A DNA stretch of 62,564 nucleotides from contig DAISRJ010000006.1 in assembly GCA_036828955.1 (NCBI GenBank), positions 1-62,564 on the forward strand. Direction: 5' to 3'. Of the stretch, positions 1 to 26,934 are shown one piece after another. Within the stretch, counting starts at the first letter, position 1. Each line of letters opens with the position of its first letter. The DNA is from Candidatus Dormiibacterota bacterium (GTDB lineage: Bacteria > Chloroflexota > Dormibacteria > Aeolococcales > Aeolococcaceae). Both the position numbers and the translations under genes were made by a program. The notes beneath the pieces were generated by a model that had not been told where the DNA came from, ran no database searches, and saw only the letters and a program-made list of their open reading frames with translations.

Positions 1-92
1 CGCCCTGACCCTCGCTCAACAGTGAAACAGCAGGGTTCGCACGATACGCCGACGGCGCAGCACGATCAAGTCGTACTCGCCCGCCCGCTCCG

Positions 93-132
93 TGCTTACA
101 AAACAGCTGCTCTACCACTGAGCTACGCCGGC
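93..132 (-). tRNA. tRNA-Thr(UGU), 5' 40 nt only; interrupted just after the anticodon loop
   Basis: Minus strand reads GCCGGCG-TA-GCTC-AGTGGTA-GAGC-A-GCTGT-TTTGTAA-GCA: acceptor 5' strand, perfect D-arm, anticodon arm with TGT. The expected GC, variable loop, TTCGA T-loop and CGCCGGC 3' strand do not follow. A TAGACT -10 sits at 150..145. Confidence 0.85.
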
Positions 133-394
133 CAGCGCTCGGTCAGTCTACCCGCCCAGTCGTGAACTCAGCCGCAGGCAGGCGGGAGCTGACCGGGAGC
201 GCGGTGGGAATCCAGCGGGAACCTATCGAAACAACAGGTCTTGACGGGCCCTGCCACCGGCAACCGCGGCATGCTGACCGTGTGGCTCCGTCCCAAGCGG
301 AGTAGCCGCGATGGTCACGGCCAACGCCGGGGGCGGGCTGCATAGTCCGTGCAGGTCTGCGTGTGGAGGCCCCCTGGTGCGCGACACTGCCGCG

Positions 395-883
395 ATGGAG
401 AACCCAGCCTTGCATCCCGACTGCGCAGCACTGGCCTTTCTCTTGGGACGATGGGAGGGTACGGGGCGGGGTCTGTGGACTGCGGAGACGCCGTTCAGAT
501 ATCGCGAGGAGGTTGTCATCGACCACGCAGGCAAGCCATTCCTCCGCTACGCCCAGCGAACATGGGCGGAAGACGACGGCCGGCCCATGCACAGCGAGGT
601 CGGTTATTTTCGTCCGGTCGGCGGGTCGCGTGTCGAACTGCTGCTGGTGCAGCCGACCGGGGTTGCCGAGATCCATGAGGGGCGGATCAAGGGATGGACT
701 CTTGAGCTCGAGGCGGTGCTCGTGGGAGTCACGCCGACAGCCAAACGGGTCACCGACGTGAACCGACACATCTGGGTCGAGCACGACGTGCTCAACTATC
801 GGCTGCTCCTTGGCATGAATGGCGAGCCGCTCAGCGACCACCTGGCTGGAACGTTGCGACGCACCGACCCCGCGGCGGGATGA
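395..883 (+). CDS. Nitrobindin / FABP-like (THAP4-type) heme-binding beta-barrel protein
   Basis: LAFLLGRWEGTG N-terminal motif, Y-x-Q-R-T-W...P-M-H-S-E-x-G-Y and a C-terminal HL (heme-ligand position). Start placed at ATG 395. Confidence 0.85.
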   Translation: MENPALHPDCAALAFLLGRWEGTGRGLWTAETPFRYREEVVIDHAGKPFLRYAQRTWAEDDGRPMHSEVGYFRPVGGSRVELLLVQPTGVAEIHEGRIKGWTLELEAVLVGVTPTAKRVTDVNRHIWVEHDVLNYRLLLGMNGEPLSDHLAGTLRRTDPAAG

Positions 884-886
884 GCC

Positions 887-1444
887 TCACTCCGCCCCCG
901 GCGGCTCCTCATCGATGGCCGGCGGGCGAGCAAGTCGCTCGAGCTGAGCGCGCACCTCAGGATCGAGCCGGTCCCCGAGGCGGTTGGCGAAACCAGCGTC
1001 ACGTCGCCTCCGCGCGGCGTGCTCGTCGACACCGTCCCGGACGCCCCGCACCTGCGCATGCAACGCGGTTGCCCCCACCACCGCCGCTCCCATCGCCATG
1101 ACCATGTCCCGTTGCAAGCGGTCACTGGTGGCCACCGTCACCAACCCGGCGTCCCCATGGTGCGAGGCCATCGAGACGCGCCGCTCGATGACGTGGTCGG
1201 CGCTCTGCGCGCGACTCCCATAGATCACCGTGATGCCGTCGATCTTCTCGCCGGCACCGCGGTCGCGCTCACGGCCGTGGGCGTCGAAGACGACGGTGAC
1301 GTGTTCACCGGTGGCGGCCGCGTACTCGCCGAGCATGGCGACAAGGCGGCGGCGCGCCTCCTCTCCCCTACCGCCCTTGATCAGGGGGGACAGCTCGGGC
1401 CACGCGTGGATGATGTTGTAGCCGTCGACGATCAGCTCACGCAT
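887..1444 (-). CDS. yacP: NYN-domain ribonuclease, YacP/Rae1 family
   Basis: LIVDGYNII, VVFDA, SADHVIE and VATSD motifs; directly downstream of rlmB as in the conserved order. Confidence 0.9.
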   Translation of the reverse strand: MRELIVDGYNIIHAWPELSPLIKGGRGEEARRRLVAMLGEYAAATGEHVTVVFDAHGRERDRGAGEKIDGITVIYGSRAQSADHVIERRVSMASHHGDAGLVTVATSDRLQRDMVMAMGAAVVGATALHAQVRGVRDGVDEHAARRRRDAGFANRLGDRLDPEVRAQLERLARPPAIDEEPPGAE

Positions 1445-2186
1445 CACGAGCCTCACGCGTCGCAAAGCCGCGCTGGCGCGCCACCTCGTAGAGCAACACT
1501 GCCGCCGCCGCCCCGGCATTGAGCGACGACACCCGGCCCGCAAGTGGCAGCGACACCACGGCGTCGCAGTGGCGCCGCGTCAGCGAACGCATGCCCTCGC
1601 CCTCGGCGCCGACCACCAGCGCCACCGGGATGGTGAAGTCAAAGCCGTCGTACCGCGTCGGGCCATCCGCGGCCAGTCCCACCACCCAGATGCCCGCCGC
1701 CTGCATCTGCTCGAGCGCTTGCACCAGGTTGGTGACAACGGCGACAGGAACATGCTCGGTGGCGCCGGCCGATGCCTTGGCCGCCGCGCCGGTGACCCCG
1801 GCGGCGCGATGCCGCGGCAGCACGATGCCGTCGGCGCCCACCGCGTCTGCGGTGCGGATGATCGCCCCGAGGTTTTGCGGATCCTGGATGCCGTCGAGCA
1901 CGACCACCAGTTGCGGGAGGCGGGCCTGCGCCATGAGGTCGTCCAGTGTCAGCGGGGCGCGGCCGTGGAAGTACCCGGCAATCCCCTGGTGGTGCTCGGT
2001 ATGGGAGATGTCGTCGAGGCGGCGGCGCGGGCTCTCCTCCACCGGGATGCCGCGCTCCTCCGCCAGGGCGCGGATCTCGTCGATGCGGAGGTCAGCGGCG
2101 GTCCCGGTGGCGATGACCAGCTTGCGCGCCGCCCTGCCGGCACGGAGTGCCTCGAGCACCGGGTTGCGCCCGTACAGGATGTCCAC
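1437..2186 (-). CDS. rlmB: 23S rRNA Gm2251 2'-O-methyltransferase (TrmH/SpoU family)
   Basis: YGRNPVLEAL, LDGIQDPQNLGAIIRTA, VGAEGEG and SLNAG motifs. Confidence 0.95.
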   Translation of the reverse strand: MDILYGRNPVLEALRAGRAARKLVIATGTAADLRIDEIRALAEERGIPVEESPRRRLDDISHTEHHQGIAGYFHGRAPLTLDDLMAQARLPQLVVVLDGIQDPQNLGAIIRTADAVGADGIVLPRHRAAGVTGAAAKASAGATEHVPVAVVTNLVQALEQMQAAGIWVVGLAADGPTRYDGFDFTIPVALVVGAEGEGMRSLTRRHCDAVVSLPLAGRVSSLNAGAAAAVLLYEVARQRGFATREARDA

Positions 2187-2272
2187 CGGCCGAGTATCGC
2201 CGACGCCCGGCGCCCCAGCCGGTCAGCCTGCCGTCCAGCTCCCGTCGGGCGCAGCGCCGCCAGCACCGCTGA

Positions 2273-3037
2273 TCACGCCACGGCACGACCGAAGGCACGC
2301 GCCGCCAGCACCACCGCGACGATCCCCAGTCCAAGTATCACGGCGAATCCCTGCGCCACCGCGATATCCGTGAGGTGGCTGTTGAACGCCGCCCGGGCCG
2401 CGTCCACCGCGTACTTGAGCGGGTTGAACGCCGCCACGGTGCGCAGCCAGCCCGGCGCCAGCTGCAGGGGCAGGAGCACGCCAGAGAGGAGCAGCAGGGG
2501 AAGCGTGGCACCGAACACGATGGGTGCGAACGCATCCTCGCTCTTCACAGCCAGCGCGATCGTGTAGGACAGCGACGCCGTCAGCAGCCCGATCAGGGCA
2601 ATCAGCAACAGCGCCAGCAGGATCCCGCCGGCGTTGATGGTCAGGCCGAAGGGGATCGCGCAGATGACCAGCAGCAGCGACTGCGCCGTGATGATCACCA
2701 CGTCGCGCAGCGCCCGGCCGAGCAGTAGGGAGATGCGGCTGATCGGCGTCACCCTGAAGCGCTCGATGACCCCCATGCGCAGTTCCGAGATGAGCCCGAA
2801 GCCCACGCCAGAGGCGCCGAACAGGCCCAGCTGCACGAGCAGGCCGGGGATGAAGACGTTGTAGGCCCCGCCCTTGGGGAACCCCGGCGCCGATGACGCC
2901 ACCTTGACCAGCAGAGGCGCGAACAGCACCAGGTACATGATCGGCTGGACGATGCCGAAGAACATCCAGACGGGGTTGCGCAGCGTCTGCAGGATGTAGC
3001 GGCGGAAGACGAGCGCGGTGTCGCGAAGCGGGTTCAT
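2273..3037 (-). CDS. ABC-2 type exporter permease (DrrB-like)
   Basis: Six hydrophobic segments, QP...LF motif, ERFRVTP, NPLKYAVDAAR. Start at ATG 3037. Confidence 0.9.
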   Translation of the reverse strand: MNPLRDTALVFRRYILQTLRNPVWMFFGIVQPIMYLVLFAPLLVKVASSAPGFPKGGAYNVFIPGLLVQLGLFGASGVGFGLISELRMGVIERFRVTPISRISLLLGRALRDVVIITAQSLLLVICAIPFGLTINAGGILLALLLIALIGLLTASLSYTIALAVKSEDAFAPIVFGATLPLLLLSGVLLPLQLAPGWLRTVAAFNPLKYAVDAARAAFNSHLTDIAVAQGFAVILGLGIVAVVLAARAFGRAVA

Positions 3038-3053
3038 GGCTGCCCTCCTCCTG

Positions 3054-4064
3054 TCAGTTGGGGTTGTCGTCGCGGAGCGAGCGACCGGTCTTGGCAAGGA
3101 ACACGTCGTCGAGGCTGGGCCGCGCCACCGTCAGCGTCGCCATCTCGAGGTTGGCCGCGTCGAGTGCGCGCATCAGGGCTGGCATCGCCGTCTCGCCGCG
3201 GTCGACGTAGAGGCGGATCAGGCCACTCTCAGCGCTGGCCTCGCGCACGAACGGCAGCGCCTGCAGCTGCGCGAAGGCGTTCTCGTGCTCACCCTGCAGG
3301 GACAGGGTGATGGCGTCGCCAGCGACCTGACGCTTGAGCGCGTCCGGCGAACCCTCGATGACGATGCTGCCGTGGTCGATGATGGCCACGCGGTCGCAGA
3401 GCGCGTCGGCCTCCTCCAGGTAGTGGGTCGTCAGGAACACCGTGGTCCCCCTGTCGCGCAGCTTGCGGACCTCCGTCCACAGGTGCGCCCGCGCCTGGGG
3501 ATCGAGTCCGGTGGTGGGCTCGTCGAGGAAGACAAGGCGGGGCCGGTGCATCAGGCCGATGGCGATGTCGAGCCGGCGCCGCTGGCCGCCCGAGTACGTC
3601 TGCGTCTTGCGGTCCGCGCAGCTCTCGATCTCGAGGGTCTCGAGCAACTCAGCCGCGCGAACCTCTGCCTGGCTCTTGCTCATCCCGTGGAGGCGCCCCT
3701 GGAACACAAGCTCGCCGCGCCCCGTCTCGATGATGTCGCTGCCGCCCGTCTGGCCGACGTAGCCGATGCGGCGGCGCACCAGGCCTCCCTGGGTGAGCAG
3801 GTCGGCGCCTGCCACCACGGCCTCTCCGCTCGTCGGGGTGAGCAGGGTCGCGAGCATGCGCAGCGTCGTGGTCTTGCCCGCCCCGTTGGGGCCGAGGAAG
3901 CCGAAGATCTCGCCGTTGCGCACCTCGAGGTCGACGCCACGGACGGCCTCGACGGTGCCCCGTCCGCGGGTCGTGAACGTGCGCCGAAGCCGGCGCGTGC
4001 GGATGGCGACGTCCCCGTCGGGGGCCTGGGCGGCGTCGTCTGCGGGGGCGATGGCCGTGGTCAT
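3054..4064 (-). CDS. ABC exporter ATP-binding protein (DrrA-like)
   Basis: Walker A GPNGAGKTT, signature YSGGQ, Walker B FLDEPTTGLD, C-terminal PSLDDVFL. Confidence 0.93.
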   Translation of the reverse strand: MTTAIAPADDAAQAPDGDVAIRTRRLRRTFTTRGRGTVEAVRGVDLEVRNGEIFGFLGPNGAGKTTTLRMLATLLTPTSGEAVVAGADLLTQGGLVRRRIGYVGQTGGSDIIETGRGELVFQGRLHGMSKSQAEVRAAELLETLEIESCADRKTQTYSGGQRRRLDIAIGLMHRPRLVFLDEPTTGLDPQARAHLWTEVRKLRDRGTTVFLTTHYLEEADALCDRVAIIDHGSIVIEGSPDALKRQVAGDAITLSLQGEHENAFAQLQALPFVREASAESGLIRLYVDRGETAMPALMRALDAANLEMATLTVARPSLDDVFLAKTGRSLRDDNPN

Positions 4065-4684
4065 GAATGCAGTCCTCGTGAGGTCTTGGCGATCTCGGTG
4101 TCGGGCAGGTGTGTCTCCCAGTGGAGGCGGCCGGCGCTGATGTCGTCCATCACGGCGCGGCACCAGGCCAGCTCCGCCTCATGGAGGCGCAGACCGAGCT
4201 CAGCCTCGAGGAGGAAGACGCGCGGCAGGCCCACCTCGTCGATCAGCATCCGCTCGGCCGCGTGGCCGCCGGCGATGATGCCCTCGAGGCGCACGACCCG
4301 CGCGCCCAGGGCCTGGGAGACGCGGCTCATGGGCAACACCCCCACCAGCGACATCGCGGCGGTGAACACGGGGTGGCCTGCGACGGGCGATTCGATCAGC
4401 TCACAGACCCAGGCGGCGATCTCGTCGCGCCCGTCGTCGGTGATGCCGTAGACGGTGCGCTCCGGGCGCCGCCCCTCGCGGCTGGTCTCGACTGCGGTGA
4501 CCAGTCCGCGCTGCTCGAGGCGCGCGATGGCGTGGTACAGCGCACGCGGCGGCCCGATCGCGAAGTCCTTGTGGCGCTCGCGGAAGAGGCGCTGGATCTC
4601 GTAGGGGTGCGACGGGCCCTCGGCAAGGACGGCAAGCGCTCCAAGCGCGACAAGGTCCAGCCGCGAACGTGGTACCTCTGCCAT
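4061..4684 (-). CDS. PadR-family transcriptional regulator
   Basis: GPSHPYEI...LYHAIARL...EGRRPERTVYGITDDG; 4-nt overlap with the ATPase start. Confidence 0.9.
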   Translation of the reverse strand: MAEVPRSRLDLVALGALAVLAEGPSHPYEIQRLFRERHKDFAIGPPRALYHAIARLEQRGLVTAVETSREGRRPERTVYGITDDGRDEIAAWVCELIESPVAGHPVFTAAMSLVGVLPMSRVSQALGARVVRLEGIIAGGHAAERMLIDEVGLPRVFLLEAELGLRLHEAELAWCRAVMDDISAGRLHWETHLPDTEIAKTSRGLHS

Positions 4685-4701
4685 AGTGCAGAGTGCACTA
4701 T
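4683..4701. promoter_or_regulatory. Probable PadR operator: perfect 8-3-8 palindrome over the -10 and start codon
   Basis: ATAGTGCA-GAG-TGCACTAT overlaps the TATAGT -10 on the minus strand and the padR ATG. Confidence 0.7.
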
Positions 4702-4732
4702 AGCAGAGGGTCGAGATCCTCGCCCAGCCGGC

Positions 4733-5383
4733 TCAGATGTACGCGGGCTGGGGCCTCGGCCGGAGCAGGGACATGGTCAGCGCCCCGCCGTAGACGAGGT
4801 CGAGAACGAGGCTCAGGACGCCCAGGAGCCCGACCGTTCCCGCCCGGGCGGTGCCGCCGAGGCCGGCGAGGCCGTCGAGGATGGCGAGCACGTCGAGCAG
4901 CAGGAAGACAACGCGCGCCGCGGTGAACTGCGTCAGCCACACGAAGAGAGCGGTGACCAGAGCCGCCGCGACCGCCGCGACCGCGAAGGCGGCGCCGATG
5001 TTGAAGGACTGCACCGTGGTGATCCCCGTGTTGGCATCAAAGATGGGCACGTTGATGTGCTGCACCAGGAGGCCGACGCCGATCAGGATGAGGGCCGTCA
5101 GCACCCCGTATCCGATGGTGATCCAGCGGCAGACGCTGATCCAGTTGGTGCCCGACGCGGTGATGCTCTGCTGGAGTGCGGCGAACCCGCCGGAGCGGAC
5201 TGGTGCCGCGCCGATGTTCGCGAAGCCCGGTGGCGGCGGAGGCGGCGGTGGCGGGTTCGAGCGAGCCGCAACGAGGTTGCGGCCGTCCGGGAGGATCAGT
5301 GCCGTACCGCAGCGCTGGCAGGTGGTTCGCTTGCCGAGCTCCGTCCAGGACCAGCAGTTCGGGCAGCACACGTTCTCGGGCAT
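4733..5383 (-). CDS. Hypothetical membrane protein with N-terminal Zn-ribbon (CPNC...CQRC) and poly-Pro linker
   Basis: ORF track; two CxxC pairs, a P8 run, then about 4 hydrophobic segments. Start inferred at ATG 5383. Confidence 0.7.
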   Translation of the reverse strand: MPENVCCPNCWSWTELGKRTTCQRCGTALILPDGRNLVAARSNPPPPPPPPPGFANIGAAPVRSGGFAALQQSITASGTNWISVCRWITIGYGVLTALILIGVGLLVQHINVPIFDANTGITTVQSFNIGAAFAVAAVAAALVTALFVWLTQFTAARVVFLLLDVLAILDGLAGLGGTARAGTVGLLGVLSLVLDLVYGGALTMSLLRPRPQPAYI

Positions 5384-5540
5384 TTCGCGATTGTGTCGCC
5401 GGGAGCGCGGCACGCTCGCGCCGTCATCGATCAGCGGCCTTTCCGTGACCAAGACGCCAAGTGCGGCGCCACGGGTAGATGGGCGCCGCGGCGCTCCGCC
5501 GCCCCATCAGGGGAATGCGGAGCGCCGCGTGCGGTGCGGC

Positions 5541-6080
5541 CTAGAGCGGGGGCGGGGGCGGGGGGCTGCCGCCGCCGAAGGAATTGCCCGACGTGGTGCC
5601 GTATGCGCTCACGGCCGGCTGCGGATCGGTGCGCTTCAGGTAGCCACCAACGGCGACGACGATCCCCGCGATGATGCCGATGAAGAGCCCGAAACTGGGA
5701 CCGTAGCTGTAGCCGGCGCCGCCTCCTCCGCTGGTGTGTGTGACCAGCCAGAGCAGAGCCATGACAGCGGCGAAGACGCCGATGATCATGTAGATCATCG
5801 CGTCGGTCTGGGGCAGTTGGGGGATGGTGAAGGTCGGCACAAACGTGCGCAGGATGAACAGCGCCAGGCCGACGAGCACTGCCAGGAAGAACAACCAGCC
5901 CGGCCAGTCATTGAGGGCGCTGACTGAGAACGATGTGTTCAAGCCGTTGCAGAGAGCGCTCCCACCGCAGCTGAAACTGGCGCTGTACCAGGGGAGAAAG
6001 GTCGCAATGAAAGCGACAACCAGGCCGATGCCGATGGCGGTGTCACCATTGCTGTAATGACGTCCGGCGACTGCAGGCAA
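5541..6080 (-). CDS. Hypothetical 4-TM membrane protein with Pro-rich C-terminus
   Basis: TTG start 6 nt after AGGAGGG; TATACT -10 at 6132..6127; TFLPWY motif and four hydrophobic stretches. Confidence 0.75.
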   Translation of the reverse strand: MPAVAGRHYSNGDTAIGIGLVVAFIATFLPWYSASFSCGGSALCNGLNTSFSVSALNDWPGWLFFLAVLVGLALFILRTFVPTFTIPQLPQTDAMIYMIIGVFAAVMALLWLVTHTSGGGGAGYSYGPSFGLFIGIIAGIVVAVGGYLKRTDPQPAVSAYGTTSGNSFGGGSPPPPPPL

Positions 6081-6177
6081 CGTGGACCCTCCTCTACATG
6101 GCGATTGCCGGGCATCCGGCGAGCGCAGTATAGGGGCCGGAAGGGCGAGCCGAACACGCGACCGACGGGAGGGCGCC

Positions 6178-6510
6178 TTAGCTTGCCGGGATGATCGGGG
6201 GCGGAACGCCACTGAGGTCGGCACGGCGGGTGAGGTAGTCGATACGGGTGACCTCGCCGCGCGCGTACATCATCTCCAGCTCCGCGACGGCGGGGTTGGG
6301 CAGCGGCGGCGCCAGCGCGCGCCGGCCGTGCAGGGCACCGATGAGCGCACGCACCAGCCACACGATGGCGACGATGACGAGCACCCAGATCACAAAACGC
6401 AGGCAGATGGCGAGCACAGACACGCCGGTGTCATATCCGCCCCGGCCCACGAGTGGGGCATTTCCGCTCAACGCGGAGAATCCTCCGAACCCTCGGCTGC
6501 CTGGTCCCAT
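6178..6510 (-). CDS. SHOCT-domain small membrane protein
   Basis: GAGGAGG RBS before ATG 6510; one TM helix, then AVAELEMMYARGEVTRIDY (SHOCT-like). Confidence 0.75.
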   Translation of the reverse strand: MGPGSRGFGGFSALSGNAPLVGRGGYDTGVSVLAICLRFVIWVLVIVAIVWLVRALIGALHGRRALAPPLPNPAVAELEMMYARGEVTRIDYLTRRADLSGVPPPIIPAS

Positions 6511-6625
6511 CTGCGGTGCCTCCTCTCTGGTCACGCCGGTCCCGGGCGGGCGCATGGATCGACCTGACCGTATGAACCGATTGTGGCGTTTCAACCTTAC
6601 ATGCGAATGACCGCTGACCGCTCGG

Positions 6626-8041
6626 TCAGAGGCGGCGCCAGCGCTGTCCCTCGCCGGTGTCCTCCACCACGATGCCGCGGCCGGCGAGAACCTCGCGGAG
6701 GCGATCCGATTCCGACCACTCGCGTTGCTCTCGCGCCACCCGGCGCAGGTCGAGCAGAGCTCGGTCCTCCTCGCTGAGAGAATTCCCGGCCCTCTCGCCG
6801 GCGACAAGCTCGAGGACCCCGAGGACGTCGTCGACCTCGTCGAGGAACCCGACCAGCGCGCTGTACGAGGCACTGTCCAGCTCCCCTTCGTCGAGCTCCC
6901 TGTTGAGGACGCGGATCAGGCTGAAGACTGTGCCCATCGCCCCGGGCAGGTTGAGGTCGTCGTCCATGGCGGCGCCGAACTCGGAGCGCGCCTCGGCGAT
7001 GCGCTCCACGCGGGCTTCGTTCTCGCCCGCGCGGGGCGGGCGGCCGCGCACCCGCGCGTCGAAGTCGGCGAGGCGGTCCACCGACTCCGTGGCGGCGTGC
7101 AGCGACTCGTCGCTGTAGTTGACCGGCTTGCGGTAATGCGCTGCCGCGGCCAGCATGTAGCGGAGCGCGGAGGGCCGCGCGCCCGAGGCCACCAGGTCGG
7201 GCACGGTGGCGAAGTTGTCCATCGACTTGGCCATCTTCTCGCCCCCGATGCGCAGGTGCGCCGAGTGGCACCAGATTTGCACGAACTGCCGCCCGGTGGC
7301 GGCCTCGCTCTGGGCGATCTCGTTCTCGTGGTGCGGAAAGATGTTGTCGACGCCTCCGCAGTGCAGGTCGAACGACTCGCCGAGCAGCGCCATGCTCATC
7401 GCCGAGCATTCGATGTGCCAGCCGGGACGGCCGCGACCGAGCCGCGTGTCCCAGCCGATCTCGTCGGCGCCGACGGCCTTCCACAGGGCAAAGTCGCGGA
7501 CGTCCTCCTTGTCGTACTCGTCGGCATCGACGCGCCCGCTCGCGCCGGCCACCAGCCCTTCGGCGCGGGCGCCGGAGAGGCGTCCGTAGTGAGGGAAGCC
7601 GGCGACCCGGTAGTAGACGCTGCCCGCGCTCCGGTACGCGACGCCCGCCGCCTCCAGCCTCTCGATGAGCGCAACCATCTCCTCGATGTATTCCGTGGCA
7701 CGTGGGAAGTGCTGGGCGGGACGGATGTTGAGGGTGCGCAGGTCTTCATAGAACTCGTCGATGAACGGTGCCGTCTCAGCGTCCAACCCATGACCTGCGG
7801 CCGCGGCATTGCGGATGATCTTGTCCTCGACATCGGTGAGGTTCATGACGTGGGTGACACGGGCGAAGCGTCGCTCCAGCCAGCGGTGCAGGATGTCCTC
7901 GAACAGAAACGTGCGGAAGTTGCCGACGTGCGCCCGCGCATAGACGGTGGGACCGCACGTGTAGAGGCGCACGTGGCCCTCCTCGAGCGGGGCCACGATG
8001 CGCAGCCTGCGCGTGAGGGTGTCGTGGAGGCGCATCGGCAT
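6626..8041 (-). CDS. cysS: Cysteinyl-tRNA synthetase
   Basis: YTCGPTVY, HVGN (HIGH), GRPGWHIECSAM, HHENEIAQ and KMAKS (KMSKS) motifs. Confidence 0.97.
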   Translation of the reverse strand: MPMRLHDTLTRRLRIVAPLEEGHVRLYTCGPTVYARAHVGNFRTFLFEDILHRWLERRFARVTHVMNLTDVEDKIIRNAAAAGHGLDAETAPFIDEFYEDLRTLNIRPAQHFPRATEYIEEMVALIERLEAAGVAYRSAGSVYYRVAGFPHYGRLSGARAEGLVAGASGRVDADEYDKEDVRDFALWKAVGADEIGWDTRLGRGRPGWHIECSAMSMALLGESFDLHCGGVDNIFPHHENEIAQSEAATGRQFVQIWCHSAHLRIGGEKMAKSMDNFATVPDLVASGARPSALRYMLAAAAHYRKPVNYSDESLHAATESVDRLADFDARVRGRPPRAGENEARVERIAEARSEFGAAMDDDLNLPGAMGTVFSLIRVLNRELDEGELDSASYSALVGFLDEVDDVLGVLELVAGERAGNSLSEEDRALLDLRRVAREQREWSESDRLREVLAGRGIVVEDTGEGQRWRRL

Positions 8042-8096
8042 GACCCGAAGTTTATCGACGAGCGCTCGCCACCCCGGCAGCGATGGGCTGCTCAGC

Positions 8097-8702
8097 TCAG
8101 GCGGCGGCGGACACTGCCTGCTCACGGCGGCTGATGACCTGGTCGATGAGACCCCACGCCAACGCCTGCTCCGCGGTCATGTAGTTGTCGCGCTCGATGT
8201 CGTGGGCGACCTCGTCCAGGGTGCGCCCGCAGTGCCTTGCGTAGATCCCGACGAGCAGGTCGCGCTGGCGCAGGATCTCGCGGGTGTGGACCTCGAGGTC
8301 GCTGGCCTTGCCCTGCAGCCCGGACGCCCATGGCTGGTGGACCAGGATCAGGGAGTTGGGCAGCGCCAGGCGCGTGCCGCGGGCGCCTGCGGCGAGGAGC
8401 AGTGAGCCCCCGCTGGCGGCCATGCCGAGGCAGATCGTCGCCACCGGTGAGCTGACCCACTGCATGGCGTCGTACATCGACAGCGCCGCGGTGACACTGC
8501 CGCCCGGCGAGTTGATGTAGAGGCTGATCGGCTTGCCCGGATCCTCGCTCTCGAGGAAGAGCAGTTGGGCTGTGACCGCATTGGCGAGGTCGTCGGTGAT
8601 CTCGTTGCCGAGGAAGATGATGCGGTCGCGCAGCAGGCGCGAGTAGATGTCGTAGGCGCGCTCGCCCCGGCTGGTGGACTCGACGACGGTCGGGATCAGC
8701 AT
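8097..8702 (-). CDS. clpP: ATP-dependent Clp protease proteolytic subunit
   Basis: [21 protein letters not shown], catalytic S (MAASGG), H (VHQP) and D (RDNYM). Confidence 0.97.
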
Positions 8703-9163
8703 CAGCGTCCATCCTCCCAGCCCGGGATGGCGAAGCCGATGCGACGCCGCGCCGGGGAGGCTGCCGGGCTGGCCAGGTAGCTGCTGAACTGGGCCACCGT
8801 CCGGAGCGCGTCGGGGCTCAGCGCCGCCGTCGCCAGGCGGAGCTGCTCCTGGGGGTTGTGGGCGACCGCCCGGGCGTCGCTGATGGTCTGCGGGGTGAGG
8901 CGATCGGCGATGTCGGCGTAGAGGACGTGGAGGGGCACGTCGAGCGCCGCGGCCATGGCCACCAGCCTCTCGGCGCTCACGTCCTTGCGCCCGCGCTCCA
9001 CCTCGGAGAGGTGGGCCGGCGAGCAGTGCGCCGCGGCGGCGACGTCTGTCAGGGATCGCCCGGCCATCTCCCGGTGGGTGCGCAGCACGGCACCCTGGAC
9101 GCGGCGCAGACGCCCGGCCCGGGTGCGGTTGTCGAGGAGTTCTTCGCTGTCAGCGTAATTCAT
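8702..9163 (-). CDS. XRE-family HTH regulator, ClgR-like, translationally coupled to clpP
   Basis: [40 protein letters not shown] resembles the actinobacterial ClgR HTH. Its stop overlaps the clpP ATG. Confidence 0.8.
9142..9159 (-). promoter_or_regulatory. Putative ClgR operator
   Basis: ATTACGCTGACAGCGAAG fits the Corynebacterium ClgR consensus WNNWCGCYNANRGCGWWS (recalled from memory) at all positions. It lies within codons 2-8 of the regulator. Confidence 0.5.
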
Positions 9164-9214
9164 TTCGCTGTGAGTAGCGTAGCAGATGCTCAGCCGGGTC
9201 GGGCCGGGCGCGGC

Positions 9215-9697
9215 TCAGGTCGCGCTGTCGAGGAGCGCCACGGCAGACGCGGCGATGCCCTCGGACCGGCCCGCGAATCCCATCCCGTCGCTGGTCGTGG
9301 CGGTGACCTGGAGCACGGACCGGTCGACGCCGAGGGCGCCGGCGCAGGCGACCGCCATGGCGTCGAGGTGGCCGCTCAGGCGCGGCTGCTCGGCGATGGC
9401 CACGACCTGGGCCGAGACGACGCGGAGGTCGTGCTCGCGAAGCATCGCCGCCACCGCGCCCAGGAACTCGCTCCCCGGCGTGTCGCGCCAGCGCTCCGCG
9501 CTCGACGGGAAGTGATCGCCCATGTCTCCCAGGCCAGCGGCACCGAGCAGCGCGTCACAGAGCGCGTGGACCACCGCGTCACCATCCGAGTGTCCCGCGA
9601 GGCCCCGTTCGTAGGGGACGTGAACGCAGCCGAGCAGCAGGGGGCGGCCCGCGACCAGGCGGTGCACGTCGATGCCGTGGCCGATGCGCAAGCTCAC
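9215..9697 (-). CDS. ispF: 2-C-methyl-D-erythritol 2,4-cyclodiphosphate synthase
   Basis: RIGHGIDVH, GHSDGDAVVHALCDALLGA and ATTSDGMGF motifs. Confidence 0.96.
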   Translation of the reverse strand: MSLRIGHGIDVHRLVAGRPLLLGCVHVPYERGLAGHSDGDAVVHALCDALLGAAGLGDMGDHFPSSAERWRDTPGSEFLGAVAAMLREHDLRVVSAQVVAIAEQPRLSGHLDAMAVACAGALGVDRSVLQVTATTSDGMGFAGRSEGIAASAVALLDSAT

Positions 9698-10365
9698 GGG
9701 CGCGCGGCCAGCAGGGCGCGGAGCACCACCAGGTCGCGGGGATGGGTCACCTTGAAATTGTCAGGGCTGCCCGCAACGATGTGGACGGGGGTCCCCAGCG
9801 CCTCCACGAGGGCGGCGTCGTCGTCGACGATGAGCGCGTTGACGCGGGCATGGAGGTGGCCGGCCACGAGCAGCTCGCGACGGAATGCCTGCGGGGTCTG
9901 GATGGCGTAGAGGTCATGGCGGTCGAGCGACTGCACGATCATCCCGCCCGCTCCCCGCTTGATGCTGTCGACCATCGGCACCGCCACGGTGGCAGCGCCG
10001 TGCAACCGGGCCGCCTCGACGCAGTCGATGAACAACTGCGGCGCGCAGAGCGGCCGTGCCGCGTCGTGCACCGCCACGACGTCCACCTCACCCACTCTGT
10101 CGAGCGCCCGGCCCACGCTGTCCTGGCGTCGGTCGCCACCCGTGGTGAGCACCACGTCGTCCAGCCCCGCCGCGGCCGCGAGCGCCGCCAGGAGCGCGTG
10201 GCGCTCCGCCGGCGCCGCGATCACGACCTGCCCGAAAGCCCCGGAGGCGGCCGCGGCGGCGAGCGTGTAGGCGATCAGCGGCCGGCCGCCGACATCGGCG
10301 AAGAGCTTGTCCTCCCCCATCCGTTGTGCCCGTCCCGAGGCGGGGATGATGAGGGTCGCGGTCAG
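9694..10365 (-). CDS. ispD: 2-C-methyl-D-erythritol 4-phosphate cytidylyltransferase (probable CTG start)
   Basis: GGDRRQDSV, VHDAARP, QTPQAF, DDAALVE and NFKVT motifs. The conserved IIPASG..QRMG lies upstream of ATG 10320, so the start must be further 5'. Confidence 0.93.
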   Translation of the reverse strand: MTATLIIPASGRAQRMGEDKLFADVGGRPLIAYTLAAAAASGAFGQVVIAAPAERHALLAALAAAAGLDDVVLTTGGDRRQDSVGRALDRVGEVDVVAVHDAARPLCAPQLFIDCVEAARLHGAATVAVPMVDSIKRGAGGMIVQSLDRHDLYAIQTPQAFRRELLVAGHLHARVNALIVDDDAALVEALGTPVHIVAGSPDNFKVTHPRDLVVLRALLAARP

Positions 10366-23156: not shown

Positions 23157-25370
23157 TCAGGTCGGCAACGGCGTGGCCACCGGGGCTGGGATGGCGGTGG
23201 GTACCGGCGTTGGCGTGGCTGTCGGGGTCGGCGTCGCCCTCGCTGTCGGGGTCGGCGTCGCCCGCGCGGACGGCGTCGGGCTGGCAGCGCTGCTCGGGCT
23301 GGCGGTCGGTGAAGCCCTCGGACTCGCCGACGGTGAGGGTGACGCTGCAGCCGTCGCGATCGGGGTCGGTCCCACGCCGAAGTTGGGTGCGAGGACACCG
23401 ATCCGGAGCAGGTCCTGCTGCCCGCTGGAGAATGGGGCTCGATCGCTCGGTGACGCGGCCACCAGCGCCGCCACTGCCGCCGCCGCGACCATCGCCGTCA
23501 GGGTCACCGGGGCGACGAGCGCTGTCTTCCGCCAGGTGGGGCGATCGCCCGTGTTCTGTGGCGAGCGGGCGTAGGCCGCCCGCTCCGGGGTGAGGATGAT
23601 GCCCTCGGCAGCCATGCTGGCCCACGGCGCGTTGGAGTAGACGAAGCCTTCGAAGAACAGCAGCAACCCCAGCACCACGGTGGCCAGCGCCGGGGAGCGC
23701 AGCAGCATGACCGCGCCGCCGATGGCCGCCGCGCAGGTGAGCACGGTCTCGGATCGGGAGGCTCGCAACGCGGAGAGGAGGGAGCCGCCCTCCTTGCTCT
23801 TGGGGGTGCGCAGGAACTCCGCGCGCCTCTGGACCAGGCCCCGCATGCAGGCCAGGGTCACCACCCACGACAGCGCGAACCAGACGCGCAGCGCGTAGAA
23901 GGCGTCGGTGCGTGTGCAGCGGCATGCTCGTCGCATCGCCCACATCGCGCGCACCACCCCGGTGGCGGCGAATGCCAGGGGAATGGCCAGCACCGCACCC
24001 GTCAGCTGACGCACCGGCAGCCGTTGGTGCACCGCTGTCGCCAGAGCGGTGGCGAGGAGCAGGACGGTGAAGATGGCGGTGAGCACCTCGGCGAACCACT
24101 GCACACTGCCGAGCAGGTAGTGGACACGCTGCGCGACGGTCAGACGGAGGCGGTGCCGCGCCATGGGGACGAGCTCGCGCCAGTGGATCTTGAGGATCTG
24201 GATGCCGCCAAGCGCCCAGCGGAATCGCTGCTTCTTGAGGCCGTCGAAATCCAGGGGCATCAGTCCCTCGCCGAACGCGGTGGGGTCGTAGACGCCGCGG
24301 TAGCCGGCGCCGAGCATGCGCAGGGACGCCTCAGCGTCCTCGGTGATGCAGTCCTGGTTCCAGCCGCCGATCTCATTGAACGTGGAGCGGCGGATCAGCC
24401 CCATGGTGCCGCAGAAGATGATCGCGTTGCGGTGGTTGCGCGCCGGCATGCTGAGGTCGAAGAAGTAGCGGAAGCTGTAGAAGAGGCCGCGCAGATATTT
24501 GTTGTCCTCCCAGTTCCTGTAGTGCTGTGAGGTCTGCACAAAGGCCACCGAGGGGTCGTCGAAGTGGCCGATCGTCTCCTGCAGCCACGGAGGGCGGACG
24601 CGGTAGTCGGCGTCGACGATGCCGAGGATCTCCACCTGCTCGGGCAGGTACTTGGTGGACTCGTTGAGCGCCCCTGCCTTGAAGCCGGGCCAGTCCTCCA
24701 GATGCACGAAGGAGAACCGCTCGCCCAGCTCCTTGCAGAGCTCTTCGAGAGGTTTCCACACCGCCGGGTCGCTGGTGTTGTTGTCGACCACCTGGACAAG
24801 CAGGTTGGGGTAGTCGACCTTGGCCAGCGAGAGGAGCGTCGGGCGCACCACGTCCACAGGCTCGTTGTAGGAGGGCACCTGGAGCGCCACCCACGGCACG
24901 CGTGTGAGTGGGGGGACGACGCGCGCGATCTCGCGGCGCGAGAGCACGTCGCAGATCTCGAAGGTGAACGAGATGGAGAGGAGCAGCGCGAGCACCTCCA
25001 GCACCAGCAGGATCACCGAGGCGATCACCGCGACCACGGAGAGGCCGGCGAGGAAGGTCTGGAACGCCGCATACACAAGGTAGGCGATCGACGCCACCGT
25101 CACCGCCACGAACAGTTGCGCGCCCATGAAGCTCCAGCGCGGTTGCAGCGCGCGCATGAGCAGCACCAGCGCCACGGTGCCGATGACCAGCACGCTCATC
25201 GCCGGTCCGTCCCTCTCGATGCCGAGGAACGCCGCAGCAGTCACGGCCACGGCGAGAGCGCAGACAGGCACACCGATCCAGAACGGTGCCCTGATCGTGG
25301 CCGGGAGCAGGGCCAGGATCATGGTGCTGACCAGCAGCAGCGCGAAGAAGATGACGATCTCGAGAATCAC
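23157..25370 (-). CDS. Processive membrane GT2 beta-glucan synthase (cellulose synthase/NdvB-like) with C-terminal Pro/Thr tail
   Basis: PSYNE, VDNN, GFKAGAL, DAD, TED and QRFRW (QxxRW) motifs; multiple TM helices; no PilZ-like segment recognised. Confidence 0.9.
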   Translation of the reverse strand: MILEIVIFFALLLVSTMILALLPATIRAPFWIGVPVCALAVAVTAAAFLGIERDGPAMSVLVIGTVALVLLMRALQPRWSFMGAQLFVAVTVASIAYLVYAAFQTFLAGLSVVAVIASVILLVLEVLALLLSISFTFEICDVLSRREIARVVPPLTRVPWVALQVPSYNEPVDVVRPTLLSLAKVDYPNLLVQVVDNNTSDPAVWKPLEELCKELGERFSFVHLEDWPGFKAGALNESTKYLPEQVEILGIVDADYRVRPPWLQETIGHFDDPSVAFVQTSQHYRNWEDNKYLRGLFYSFRYFFDLSMPARNHRNAIIFCGTMGLIRRSTFNEIGGWNQDCITEDAEASLRMLGAGYRGVYDPTAFGEGLMPLDFDGLKKQRFRWALGGIQILKIHWRELVPMARHRLRLTVAQRVHYLLGSVQWFAEVLTAIFTVLLLATALATAVHQRLPVRQLTGAVLAIPLAFAATGVVRAMWAMRRACRCTRTDAFYALRVWFALSWVVTLACMRGLVQRRAEFLRTPKSKEGGSLLSALRASRSETVLTCAAAIGGAVMLLRSPALATVVLGLLLFFEGFVYSNAPWASMAAEGIILTPERAAYARSPQNTGDRPTWRKTALVAPVTLTAMVAAAAVAALVAASPSDRAPFSSGQQDLLRIGVLAPNFGVGPTPIATAAASPSPSASPRASPTASPSSAASPTPSARATPTPTARATPTPTATPTPVPTAIPAPVATPLPT
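23221..23263. repeat. 19-nt direct repeat with 24-nt period, within the Pro/Thr-rich coding tail
   Basis: gtcggggtcggcgtcgccc at 23221 and 23245, encoding ARATPTPT x2. Confidence 0.8.
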
Positions 25371-25373
25371 CGG

Positions 25374-26603
25374 TCAGCCTCCATCGAGGTTGGGGAGCGC
25401 ACCCGCCACCAGGGCGAGCCCGAACCACACCCAGTTCTGCTCGAAGTAATTGGACGCGTCGCCGAAGAACGCGGGGGGACCGGGATGAAAGCTGGACAGA
25501 AGGTGCTGCTCGATCTGTGTCGCCGCGGTGGGGTCGGCAACGACGAAGGCGCCGATGTCACCGCCGTAGACAGTGGGGTCGTCGTAGCCGCTGACCACGG
25601 TGCCATCGTGCCCGTACACCGGGTCGAGACGCTGTGCGGTGTTCCAGCGGGTGCGCAGGAAGTCGTTGCGGGTCAGGTAGTCGCGAGCGCGCTGCTCGTT
25701 GTTCCAGACGGCGTCGAGCGCAACCCGCCACATCACTCGGAACGCGTCGTAGCCGTAGTCGTCTGCGCCGGCGATCTGGGGGAAGGACACGATGCTGCCG
25801 TTGCCACGCGCGATCGCGCACCAGTTGGGTGGCAGGCCGGCACCGTGCTTTCCGTCGAGCGTGGCTGCGGAGCAGCGGTCGAGAAGGGTGTACGAACTGT
25901 CGACGAGGCCGGCCCACGGGTGGGTGGCGTCCTCACGCGCGAAGATCCTGTAGGCGTACGGCGCGAAGTACGACGGGTTGATCACCGGCCCCGGAACCTG
26001 TTGCACGGCCGCCCAGTTGCCCGCCGTGAGCACGTTCATCCCATCGATGGACACGACATCGTGCTGCCACATGCCGGACAGCACGGTCAGCGCCGCTGTG
26101 TGGTACGCCCCGTCCCCGAAGCGGCGTGCGCCGAAGAGCAGCGCCAGGGCGATGTCGGAGTCGGCGTCGCTGGCGCTGTTGTTGTCCTGCACCTTTCCGC
26201 CGTTCCAGAGGGAGGCGAAGAGGCCATCGCCGCGGACCTGGAGGTGGGCCGCGGTCCAGCCCCACACCGTGTCGAATGTCGGCTGATCGCCCATCCACGC
26301 GGCGCGCAGGAGCGCGTAGCTCTGTCCTTCGGAGGTGGTGACGCCGCCGCGCTTGGGATCGGCGACCCGACCGTCCGAGGCGATGAAGACAGACCTGTAG
26401 CCGGCCCACGCCTGCGCGAGGATCGAGAGATCGCGCGCCGGGGGCGTCGCGCTCGCCGGATGGGCGCCTGCGGACCGAGTCGCGCTCACGCCCGGCGCGC
26501 CGGCACAGCCGGCGAGCAACAGCGCAGCGAGCGAGGCGGCCGCGACCAAGGAGAGCGATCCAAGCGGGGCAGCGCTCCGAGCCGGGGTGCGGTCATACGG
26601 CAA
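25374..26603 (-). CDS. Glycoside hydrolase family 8 (BcsZ-like endoglucanase) lipoprotein
   Basis: Lipobox LLLAGC; TTSEGQSYAL, SASDADSDIALALL, NPSYFAP and YDAFRV motifs. TTG start. Confidence 0.9.
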   Translation of the reverse strand: MPYDRTPARSAAPLGSLSLVAAASLAALLLAGCAGAPGVSATRSAGAHPASATPPARDLSILAQAWAGYRSVFIASDGRVADPKRGGVTTSEGQSYALLRAAWMGDQPTFDTVWGWTAAHLQVRGDGLFASLWNGGKVQDNNSASDADSDIALALLFGARRFGDGAYHTAALTVLSGMWQHDVVSIDGMNVLTAGNWAAVQQVPGPVINPSYFAPYAYRIFAREDATHPWAGLVDSSYTLLDRCSAATLDGKHGAGLPPNWCAIARGNGSIVSFPQIAGADDYGYDAFRVMWRVALDAVWNNEQRARDYLTRNDFLRTRWNTAQRLDPVYGHDGTVVSGYDDPTVYGGDIGAFVVADPTAATQIEQHLLSSFHPGPPAFFGDASNYFEQNWVWFGLALVAGALPNLDGG

Positions 26604-26733: not shown

Positions 26734-26816
26734 GCCGGGGTGGCGGAACGGTAGACGCAGCGGTCTCAAAAACCGCCGGAGGCAACTCCGTGAGGGTTCG
26801 ACTCCCTCTCCCGGCA
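26734..26816 (+). tRNA. tRNA-Leu(CAA)
   Basis: Full cloverleaf: GCCGGGG/TCCCGGC acceptor, anticodon loop CTCAAAA, long variable arm CGGAG-GCAA-CTCCG, GTTCGACTC T-loop, discriminator A. CCA is not encoded. Confidence 0.97.
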
Positions 26817-26934
26817 CGTTGATGCAGATAAGCGATCTCGCCTCAGTAGCCGCTCGCCAGAGTTCGCGAGGTCCGGTGTGACTGCCAGGTGACAGCCCCA
26901 GGTGTGGCCCGCCGGCCACCAGCCCAGATCAGTC

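Follow-up and report, generated by a model that had tools for sequence, protein, structure and literature searches.

This locus raises the question of what a tRNA gene that breaks off directly behind its anticodon loop represents: a gene interrupted by an intron, a gene split by an integrated element, or the remains of one that no longer works. The window, by which we mean the whole 62,564-nt stretch of DNA that was analyzed (G+C ~70%), carries the piece at its very start (Table 1). Read on the minus strand from 132 to 96, it consists of the 5′ strand of the acceptor stem (GCCGGCG), the dinucleotide TA, a perfect D arm (GCTC-AGTGGTA-GAGC), a single A, the 5′ strand of the anticodon stem (GCTGT) and the 7-nt loop TTTGTAA with its anticodon UGU. 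The first 37 nt of the intact tRNA-Thr(TGT) genes that ARAGORN called in two related, Dormibacterota-like metagenome contigs (L004 8747–8821 and L015 1911–1984) are identical to it at 37 of 37 positions, and the piece is an end piece of the tRNA that includes the 5′ end, not an internal one. A first-pass annotation had described the first 40 nt as a textbook tRNA-Thr; the 5′ part of tRNA-Thr(UGU) is indeed there, but the match is 37 nt long and ends at window 96.

Table 1. Features at the start of the window, with positions in the window and the basis for each assignment
Feature	Position	Strand	Basis
tRNA-Thr(UGU) 5′ fragment, nt 1–37	96..132	minus	Read directly; 37/37 match to intact genes
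Recombination junction	92..95	minus	GCAC in the window versus ACAG in the intact gene; alignments
Membrane-gene 5′ leader (~90 nt)	4..95	minus	Homologous to the ORF leader in L003, L004, L005 and L017
Hairpin AGTACGA/TCGTGCT	77..59	minus	Inside the leader
CGTCGGC stretch	54..48	minus	Paired with the acceptor strand by Rfam
SD-like GAGGG	13..9	minus	Upstream of the membrane-protein ORF
Membrane-protein ORF start codon	1..3	minus	Alignment; GTG in L003 and L004, GCG in the window
Upstream block, alpha type, duplicated with the 5′ fragment	133..280	minus	Homologous to the beta-type block of the intact genes
Candidate −10 hexamer TAGACT	145..150	minus	12 nt before the tRNA 5′ end
Nitrobindin/THAP4-type haem-binding beta-barrel gene	395..883 (possible alternative start 311)	plus	Translation; PF08768 on homologues

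Homology to the intact genes stops, within 3 nt, at the final base of the anticodon loop (window 96). At this edge the alignment shows TTTTGTAA followed by ACAGC in the intact gene and TTTTGTAA followed by GCACG in the fragment, and the BLAST block shared by the window and L004 stops at window 93. The region failed as a complete cloverleaf: GCACG (95..91) pairs with the anticodon stem at 3 of 5 positions, a 30-nt stretch replaces the T arm, which is absent after the break, and ARAGORN was negative in both the window and L003. ARAGORN had been named in the first-pass annotation as a check; its sole call in the whole window was a tRNA-Leu(CAA) at 26734–26817. The window edge lies 95 nt past the fragment, and neither a second copy of the fragment nor an att repeat was found within the 62,564 nt. 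Elsewhere in the window, 23196–23277 holds three tandem 24-nt units (TGTCGGGGTCGGCGTCGCCC...), with a fourth related copy at 26153, which are probably a coding repeat.

The first-pass annotation had allowed that an intact tRNA-Thr(UGU) elsewhere would make the piece a pseudogene. Intact genes are present in L004 and L015, and the window copy is therefore a non-functional remnant: window 96–132 is a dead, displaced 5′ fragment of tRNA-Thr(UGU) with its native upstream (promoter) block. We hold with high confidence to this core of the interpretation, namely that the fragment is dead, that an intact copy lies downstream and that no intron is involved.

The similarity between the fragment and the intact genes extends well upstream of the tRNA. 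Window 93–280 matches L004 8587–8786 at 85% over 200 nt and L015 1945–2149 at 81% in BLAST, and the upstream block agrees with the upstream region of the intact genes at 83–89% of aligned bases over ~150–190 nt. The result is a direct repeat of 188–200 nt, made up of ~150 nt of upstream DNA and the first 37–40 nt of the tRNA. Two types of upstream block, alpha and beta, differ by 11–17% and by an 11-nt indel. The beta block (the intact copy of L004, L005, L015 and L017) carries an 11-nt tandem duplication, GAGTTCCCGTC followed directly by GAGTTCACG, which the alpha block (the window, L003 and the fragment copy of L004) does not have; the site lies at about window 160–170, or L004 8700–8720. 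The tRNA had also been said to have its own TAGACT promoter. The hexamer is present, read from 150 to 145, and makes a plausible −10 box, but a sigma-70 consensus scan returned no promoter match. It reads TAAACT in the intact copies, and the form TA[G/A]ACT is kept in 6 of 7 aligned copies, the exception being copy A of L004 (TAGGACT). TAGACT is thus a candidate promoter element.

Five other independent assemblies share the junction (L003, L004, L005, L017 and L018), and the comparisons rest on metagenome contigs, several of which are short. L003, which a metagenome scan for the junction sequence brought up, agrees with window 3–3000 at 99% and extends 660 nt past the window edge; no tRNA 3′ half was found in these 660 nt. 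The scan pattern ended in G, and the beta-type junctions (GCACT) were recovered outside that pattern, through protein look-ups. One candidate for the missing 3′ end of the tRNA, CGCCGGCACCA, lies 660 nt past the window edge in L003 and L004 and was rejected: no T arm or anticodon-stem strand adjoins it, Rfam was negative and it is absent from L005, L017, L006 and L016. GCCGGC (compare CGCCGGCACCA) is a palindrome that is very common in this DNA. L018 starts inside the fragment, and L008 (8217) and L009 (3433), both found via a SpoU protein, end at the repeat. Contig ends of several independent assemblies (the window edge, L003, L008, L009 and L018) cluster at or within the repeat, consistent with a repeat, or a region variable between strains, at which short-read assemblies break.

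What lies beyond the break can be read in L004, part of a 47-kb ENA contig that is collinear with window 3–4880 at 91%. In tRNA orientation, L004 runs from the nitrobindin gene (minus strand) through an upstream block and the 5′ fragment (from 4758), the membrane-protein gene (4888–5412), a Clp_N gene, a PRC-barrel gene (minus strand) and a NUDIX gene (minus strand) to a second upstream block and the intact tRNA-Thr(TGT), beyond which follows an IS481/rve-type transposase. The intact gene, besides being called by ARAGORN, scores 72 bits in Rfam. It lies ~3.9 kb from the fragment and in the same orientation, on the plus strand of the locus, and the interval between them, which holds the membrane-protein, Clp_N, PRC-barrel and NUDIX genes on both strands, has a G+C content of 62–66%, compared with ~70% in the flanks. 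The nearest tRNA 3′ half in L004 belongs to this complete 75-nt gene, which comes with a 5′ half and an upstream block of its own. Neither the called genes of the interval nor an ORF-level Pfam search nor a six-frame one (5413–8590) yielded an integrase or recombinase, and BLAST of the 4-kb interval against phages and plasmids returned only generic tRNA-Thr and Clp_N matches. An integrase search had been among the checks listed in the first-pass annotation; it came back empty for the L004 interval and likewise, with Pfam and PHROGs, for the partial variants L005, L016 and L017. Neither the junction nor the 37-nt 5′ half had a match in scans of viral contigs.

Several further features of this region deserve mention. 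In L004, the NUDIX gene (8199–8590) is broken by a stop codon and the middle of the membrane-protein ORF (5210–5290) is frame-shifted relative to L003; these disruptions may reflect pseudogenization or assembly indel errors. Just after the membrane-protein gene, ~570–600 nt past window position 1 (L003 12265–12302, L004 5453–5492), stands GTCGCCGGCACCA, separated by 7 nt from TGTTTTGTATACA. The latter agrees at 12 of 13 positions with TGTTTTGTAAACA, the anticodon-loop region of the intact tRNA, and among the 18 fetched loci GTTTTGTA occurs otherwise only in the tRNA-Thr copies and once in the unrelated L002. TGTTTTGTATACA could represent a second att core or 5′ fragment, now decayed, that a tandem insertion left behind, or it could be a product of chance; the pair of motifs GTCGCCGGCACCA and TGTTTTGTATACA is absent from the other right-flank variants.

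A second relative, L015, looks like an unoccupied version of the same neighborhood. It has neither the fragment nor the insert and carries one intact tRNA-Thr(TGT) with a beta-type upstream block; it shares the nitrobindin gene at 96% nucleotide identity, and its DNA past the tRNA matches L004 10205–10689 at 94%. However, nitrobindin and the tRNA are separated by an AAA_22 ATPase gene, and the upstream block is of the type found at the intact copy of L004. Directly 3′ of tRNA-Thr, where L004 has its IS481/rve-type transposase in two ORFs (8933–10008), L015 has a GT87 glycosyltransferase (666–1901), followed by DNA common to both, so that the 3′ side of the tRNA is also variable. On the other side, the nitrobindin gene forms the chromosomal left flank of the fragment, in divergent orientation. 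The nitrobindin gene alone (311/347–888) is 93–96% identical at the nucleotide level to its counterparts in L001 and L015, and the DNA on both sides of it is unrelated. A highly conserved nitrobindin gene in three contexts suggests that recombination is frequent in these populations. A scan of a genome collection with the nitrobindin protein returned only L001, without synteny, and one unrelated match. Among named records, MAGs of Candidatus Dormibacterota/Dormibacteria come closest, which suggests that the window stems from that phylum.

The DNA that directly follows the break had been described as a structured insert. Three hairpins are indeed present, and the 140-nt stretch folds somewhat better than its shuffles (z = −3.3), but in the alignment of the five fragment-bearing copies, which has low power for covariation, 0 of 28 pairs showed two-sided changes. 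The helices tested were the pseudo-acceptor stem, the D and anticodon arms, the hairpin at 77..59 and CCCTG/CAGGG. In L005 and L017, which are diverged copies, the hairpins decay and several pairs are broken, and L005 has a G4A change in the acceptor strand without compensation. The stretch is instead homologous to the leader of a protein gene. This leader is only 77–80% identical between the lineage of the window and L003 and that of L005 and L017, and it is partly homologous in L006, from which the tRNA fragment is absent and which has a similar CGTCAGC upstream of the membrane-protein gene. In this GC-rich DNA, the exact complement CGCCGGC has a frequency of 1.1 per kb and strand. Given the lack of covariation, the position of CGTCGGC within the leader and the commonness of CGCCGGC, the supposed structured insert is a GC-rich leader, not a ribozyme or the body of a tRNA.

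The gene behind this leader encodes, in L003 (11700–12224), a protein of 174 aa with several hydrophobic stretches that matches no Pfam or PHROG family. We treat it as a real gene because its homologues form eight clusters at 64–95% identity. In the window, where the start position reads GCG, translation may begin at an in-frame GTG or ATG further downstream, or the gene may be impaired in this strain.

How, then, did the 5′ half come to be separated from its gene? The first-pass annotation had offered, as its second explanation, an integrated element that splits the tRNA gene and must excise, or supply the 5′ half elsewhere, to restore it. The arrangement in L004 bears this out in outline, since a second upstream block and 5′ half are found fused to the 3′ half 3.9 kb on, but no integrase is present in the interval. 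In the model that we favor, a DNA segment of ~3.9 kb would have recombined with the tRNA gene just where the anticodon loop ends on its 3′ side. If the far end of the segment carried its own copy of the upstream block and of the tRNA 5′ half, the product would read host upstream block and 5′ half, insert, insert upstream block and 5′ half, and finally host 3′ half. The downstream end would thereby regain a functional tRNA, with the original 5′ half stranded upstream as the piece seen in the window. The membrane-protein gene would be the first gene of the insert, now placed behind the stranded tRNA promoter, which may drive it. The recombination would have been of the integrase type, with the integrase since lost or acting in trans, and the genome from which the window derives presumably shares the downstream arrangement of L004.

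This arrangement can be compared with what is known of islands in tRNA genes. In the Islander survey, 159 of 3919 islands had a 5′ tDNA fragment and 2083 of 3919 an anticodon-centered attP, and its rule for the former places the 5′ fragment on the upstream side of the tDNA, with both in one orientation (PMC4383910). L004 combines an intact tDNA and its cognate fragment on one replicon, the 5′ fragment (4758) lying upstream of the tRNA (8747–8821) on the same strand. The interval, with ~3.9 kb between the junction and the first base of the intact gene, falls within the 2–200 kb range of the survey, and the crossover coincides within 3 nt with a recognized subsite, the end of the anticodon loop. 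A tyrosine integrase in the interval is lacking in L004, where there is only the IS481/rve transposase beyond the tRNA, and the integrase filter of Islander would therefore reject the locus. Like the Islander islands with the anticodon-centered "A" subsite, the inserted DNA restores the tRNA gene and displaces an end fragment; unlike them, it has no integrase, it comes with ~150 nt of extra repeat, and its cargo is only four small, ordinary-looking genes. The locus shows the known island-in-tRNA signature in its rarer 5′-fragment form, without an integrase.

The other variants add to this picture. L005 has the identical junction, and its left flank departs from ~100 nt upstream of the tRNA start. 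In L017, which is only 1.5 kb long, a NUDIX gene, a beta-type upstream block and the 5′ half are joined directly to the junction and the membrane-protein gene, a layout that an excised circle, a tandem copy or a mis-join at the repeat would produce. The junction is thus attached to three left flanks: nitrobindin (the window, L003 and L004), unrelated genes (L005) and NUDIX with a beta block (L017). L006 and L007 carry the membrane-protein gene without the tRNA fragment, and L006 also has the PRC gene. In L016, a relative of the membrane-protein gene that is 74% identical keeps its homology (220–260) through TTTTGTCAGCAC, which comprises the loop core and the junction; upstream of TTTTGTCAGCAC the sequence is unrelated and AT-richer, with no tRNA 5′ half. 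Either the fragment in L016 has decayed heavily or a different left partner was joined at the same core.

The state of preservation of the fragment is also informative. All 37 nt are shared by the window, L003, L017 and both intact genes, and 36 of 37 and 32 of 37 are kept in L005 and in the L004 fragment, respectively, whereas the flanks of the fragment are ~77–89% identical between lineages. A neutral, old, in-place duplicate at 11–17% divergence would be expected to show ~4–6 changes in 37 nt. The pristine 5′ half thus points to one of three histories: the upstream blocks diverged in separate lineages, each on a working tRNA, and have only recently met; the junction arose more than once, each time at one and the same nucleotide; or the fragment is kept unchanged by gene conversion from the intact copy.

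Taken together, these observations make a site-specific-type insertion at the anticodon loop that left a displaced 5′ fragment the best explanation of the locus, to which we assign a probability of roughly 0.6. The exact break point, the three left flanks, the pristine 5′ half, the layout of L017 and the lower G+C of the interval form the basis for regarding site-specific integration as the most likely origin. We class the feature itself as a displaced 5′ tDNA fragment, an attL-type scar, an assignment that follows from the presence in L004 of everything that Islander looks for save the integrase. With no mobility gene in the interval of L004, the mechanism of insertion is one that we infer, and a site-specific mechanism, taken alone, seems to us slightly better than an even bet. 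Besides the missing integrase, several points tell against it: gene conversion could account for the pristine 5′ half, L017 could be a mis-join, L006 and L007 have the membrane-protein gene but no fragment, the cargo (membrane protein, Clp_N, PRC-barrel and NUDIX) resembles ordinary chromosomal genes, and the repeat runs ~150 nt past the tRNA into non-tRNA DNA. So long an extension is unusual for attP/attB identity and fits the DNA of a related chromosome. In addition, the upstream block of L015 is 93% identical to the downstream copy of L004, compared with 79% to the fragment-linked copy, which is the opposite of what the simplest assignment of host and element would give.

These points lend some weight to an origin of the same dead fragment without site-specific machinery. 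DNA of a related chromosome might have entered with homologous recombination at one end and illegitimate recombination at the other, or a circular fragment by a single crossover; in a variant, a local duplication was followed by a deletion. Under both versions, gene conversion from the intact copy would preserve the 37 nt, and the position of the break at the loop edge would be coincidental. An origin of this kind would sit well with the absence of an integrase anywhere in the interval, with a repeat that takes in ~150 nt of non-tRNA upstream DNA, with a mosaic neighborhood in which nitrobindin alone is shared with L001 and L015 (93–96%) between differing flanks, and with insert genes that look chromosomal and are found without the fragment in L006. 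It is harder to reconcile with a break exactly at the boundary of the anticodon loop, the commonest integrase crossover subsite (PMC4383910), since a chance break would fall in a window of so few nucleotides about 1 time in 10. Nor does it readily account for an identical junction on three different left flanks or for a pristine 5′ half beside diverged flanks in four lineages, though gene conversion could explain the latter. We regard such an origin as the serious alternative, if on the whole an unlikely one.

A stronger version of site-specific insertion would have the segment still active, as an integrase-less mini-island of Dormibacterota that enters and leaves tRNA-Thr(UGU) at the loop by means of a recombinase encoded elsewhere, with the stranded half serving as a captured strong promoter and leader. 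If this were true, each integration, in supplying a tRNA promoter and 5′ half of its own, would give the displaced tRNA promoter of the host to the gene for the 174-aa membrane protein. Integrase-less islands bounded by att sites and mobilized by a helper element, known as CIMEs (cis-mobilizable elements), have been described in streptococci. The locus resembles them in its att-like direct repeats in a tRNA gene and its lack of a recombination module, and L017, if it is not a mis-assembly, is compatible with a circle or tandem junction; the locus differs in that its boundaries are set only by comparison of metagenome contigs. An active element of this kind strikes us as doubtful.

Far less probable is a functional product of the fragment, either a non-canonical tRNA-like RNA of 86 nt (window 47–132) that would have an acceptor stem, a D arm, a weak anticodon arm and a long hairpin in place of the T arm, or the 5′ half of a split tRNA completed in trans. 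The high conservation of the 37 nt could be read in this way, as could a match of the Rfam tRNA model (RF00005) to 47–132, which reaches 29.2 bits against a gathering score of 29 with 7 of 7 acceptor pairs. The match requires that the acceptor strand pair with CGUCGGC (54..48) in the leader and that the 30-nt stretch at the T arm be skipped, and a single G-to-A difference in L003 cuts the score to 15.9 bits. ARAGORN is negative, the G4A change in L005 is uncompensated and no pair covaries; the CGTCGGC partner is part of the leader of the membrane-protein gene, with the similar CGTCAGC in the fragment-less L006, and CGCCGGC arises often enough by itself at the frequency given above. In the split tRNA genes of Nanoarchaeum, the halves are joined in trans. 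Like such a 5′ half, the fragment has a promoter of its own and breaks off directly behind the anticodon loop; it differs in belonging to a bacterium, in that no free-standing 3′ half was found in L003 or L004 and no joining complement, and in that relatives have an intact gene.

The first explanation of the first-pass annotation, a tRNA-Thr split by a self-splicing group I intron whose remainder lies beyond the window edge, can for practical purposes be discarded. Group I (IC3) introns do sit in the anticodon loops of bacterial tRNAs, such as the cyanobacterial tRNA-Leu and the tRNA-Ile of Azoarcus, and the break adjoins such a loop and is followed by local hairpins that fold better than shuffles. 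However, no Intron_gpI or other intron model of Rfam matched in three scans: window 1–1500 and L003 11450–12357 at E ≤ 10, and L004 4500–9000, the whole interval from the fragment to the intact tRNA, at E ≤ 1. Beyond the tRNA model, no other credible Rfam family appeared in window 1–1500 at E ≤ 10. The break comes after the last base of the loop and is followed by a conserved leader and a protein ORF, and the helices likened to P4 and P5 of such introns show no covariation and are not conserved in the five-copy alignment. A lone 3′ exon was not found either: the only downstream 3′ half in L004 stands 3.9 kb away, across an interval that codes for proteins on both strands, in a complete tRNA gene with its own 5′ half. 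An assembly chimera at ~92–96, a concern raised by the first-pass annotation and by the ending of the window and several related contigs near the locus, is negligible in view of the identical junction in six independent assemblies (JGI and ENA), the five others among them, including a 47-kb contig that spans it.

For annotation, the feature should be labeled a 5′ pseudogene fragment of tRNA-Thr, or an att-type scar, marking a variable region, and not an intron-containing or split tRNA. Our results mark tRNA-Thr(UGU) as a hot spot of recombination in a phylum of uncultured soil and peat bacteria, which explains the assembly breaks at this position. If the insert can move, it would represent, on a small scale, the rarer class of tRNA-targeting islands whose insertion replaces both the promoter and the 5′ half of the target.
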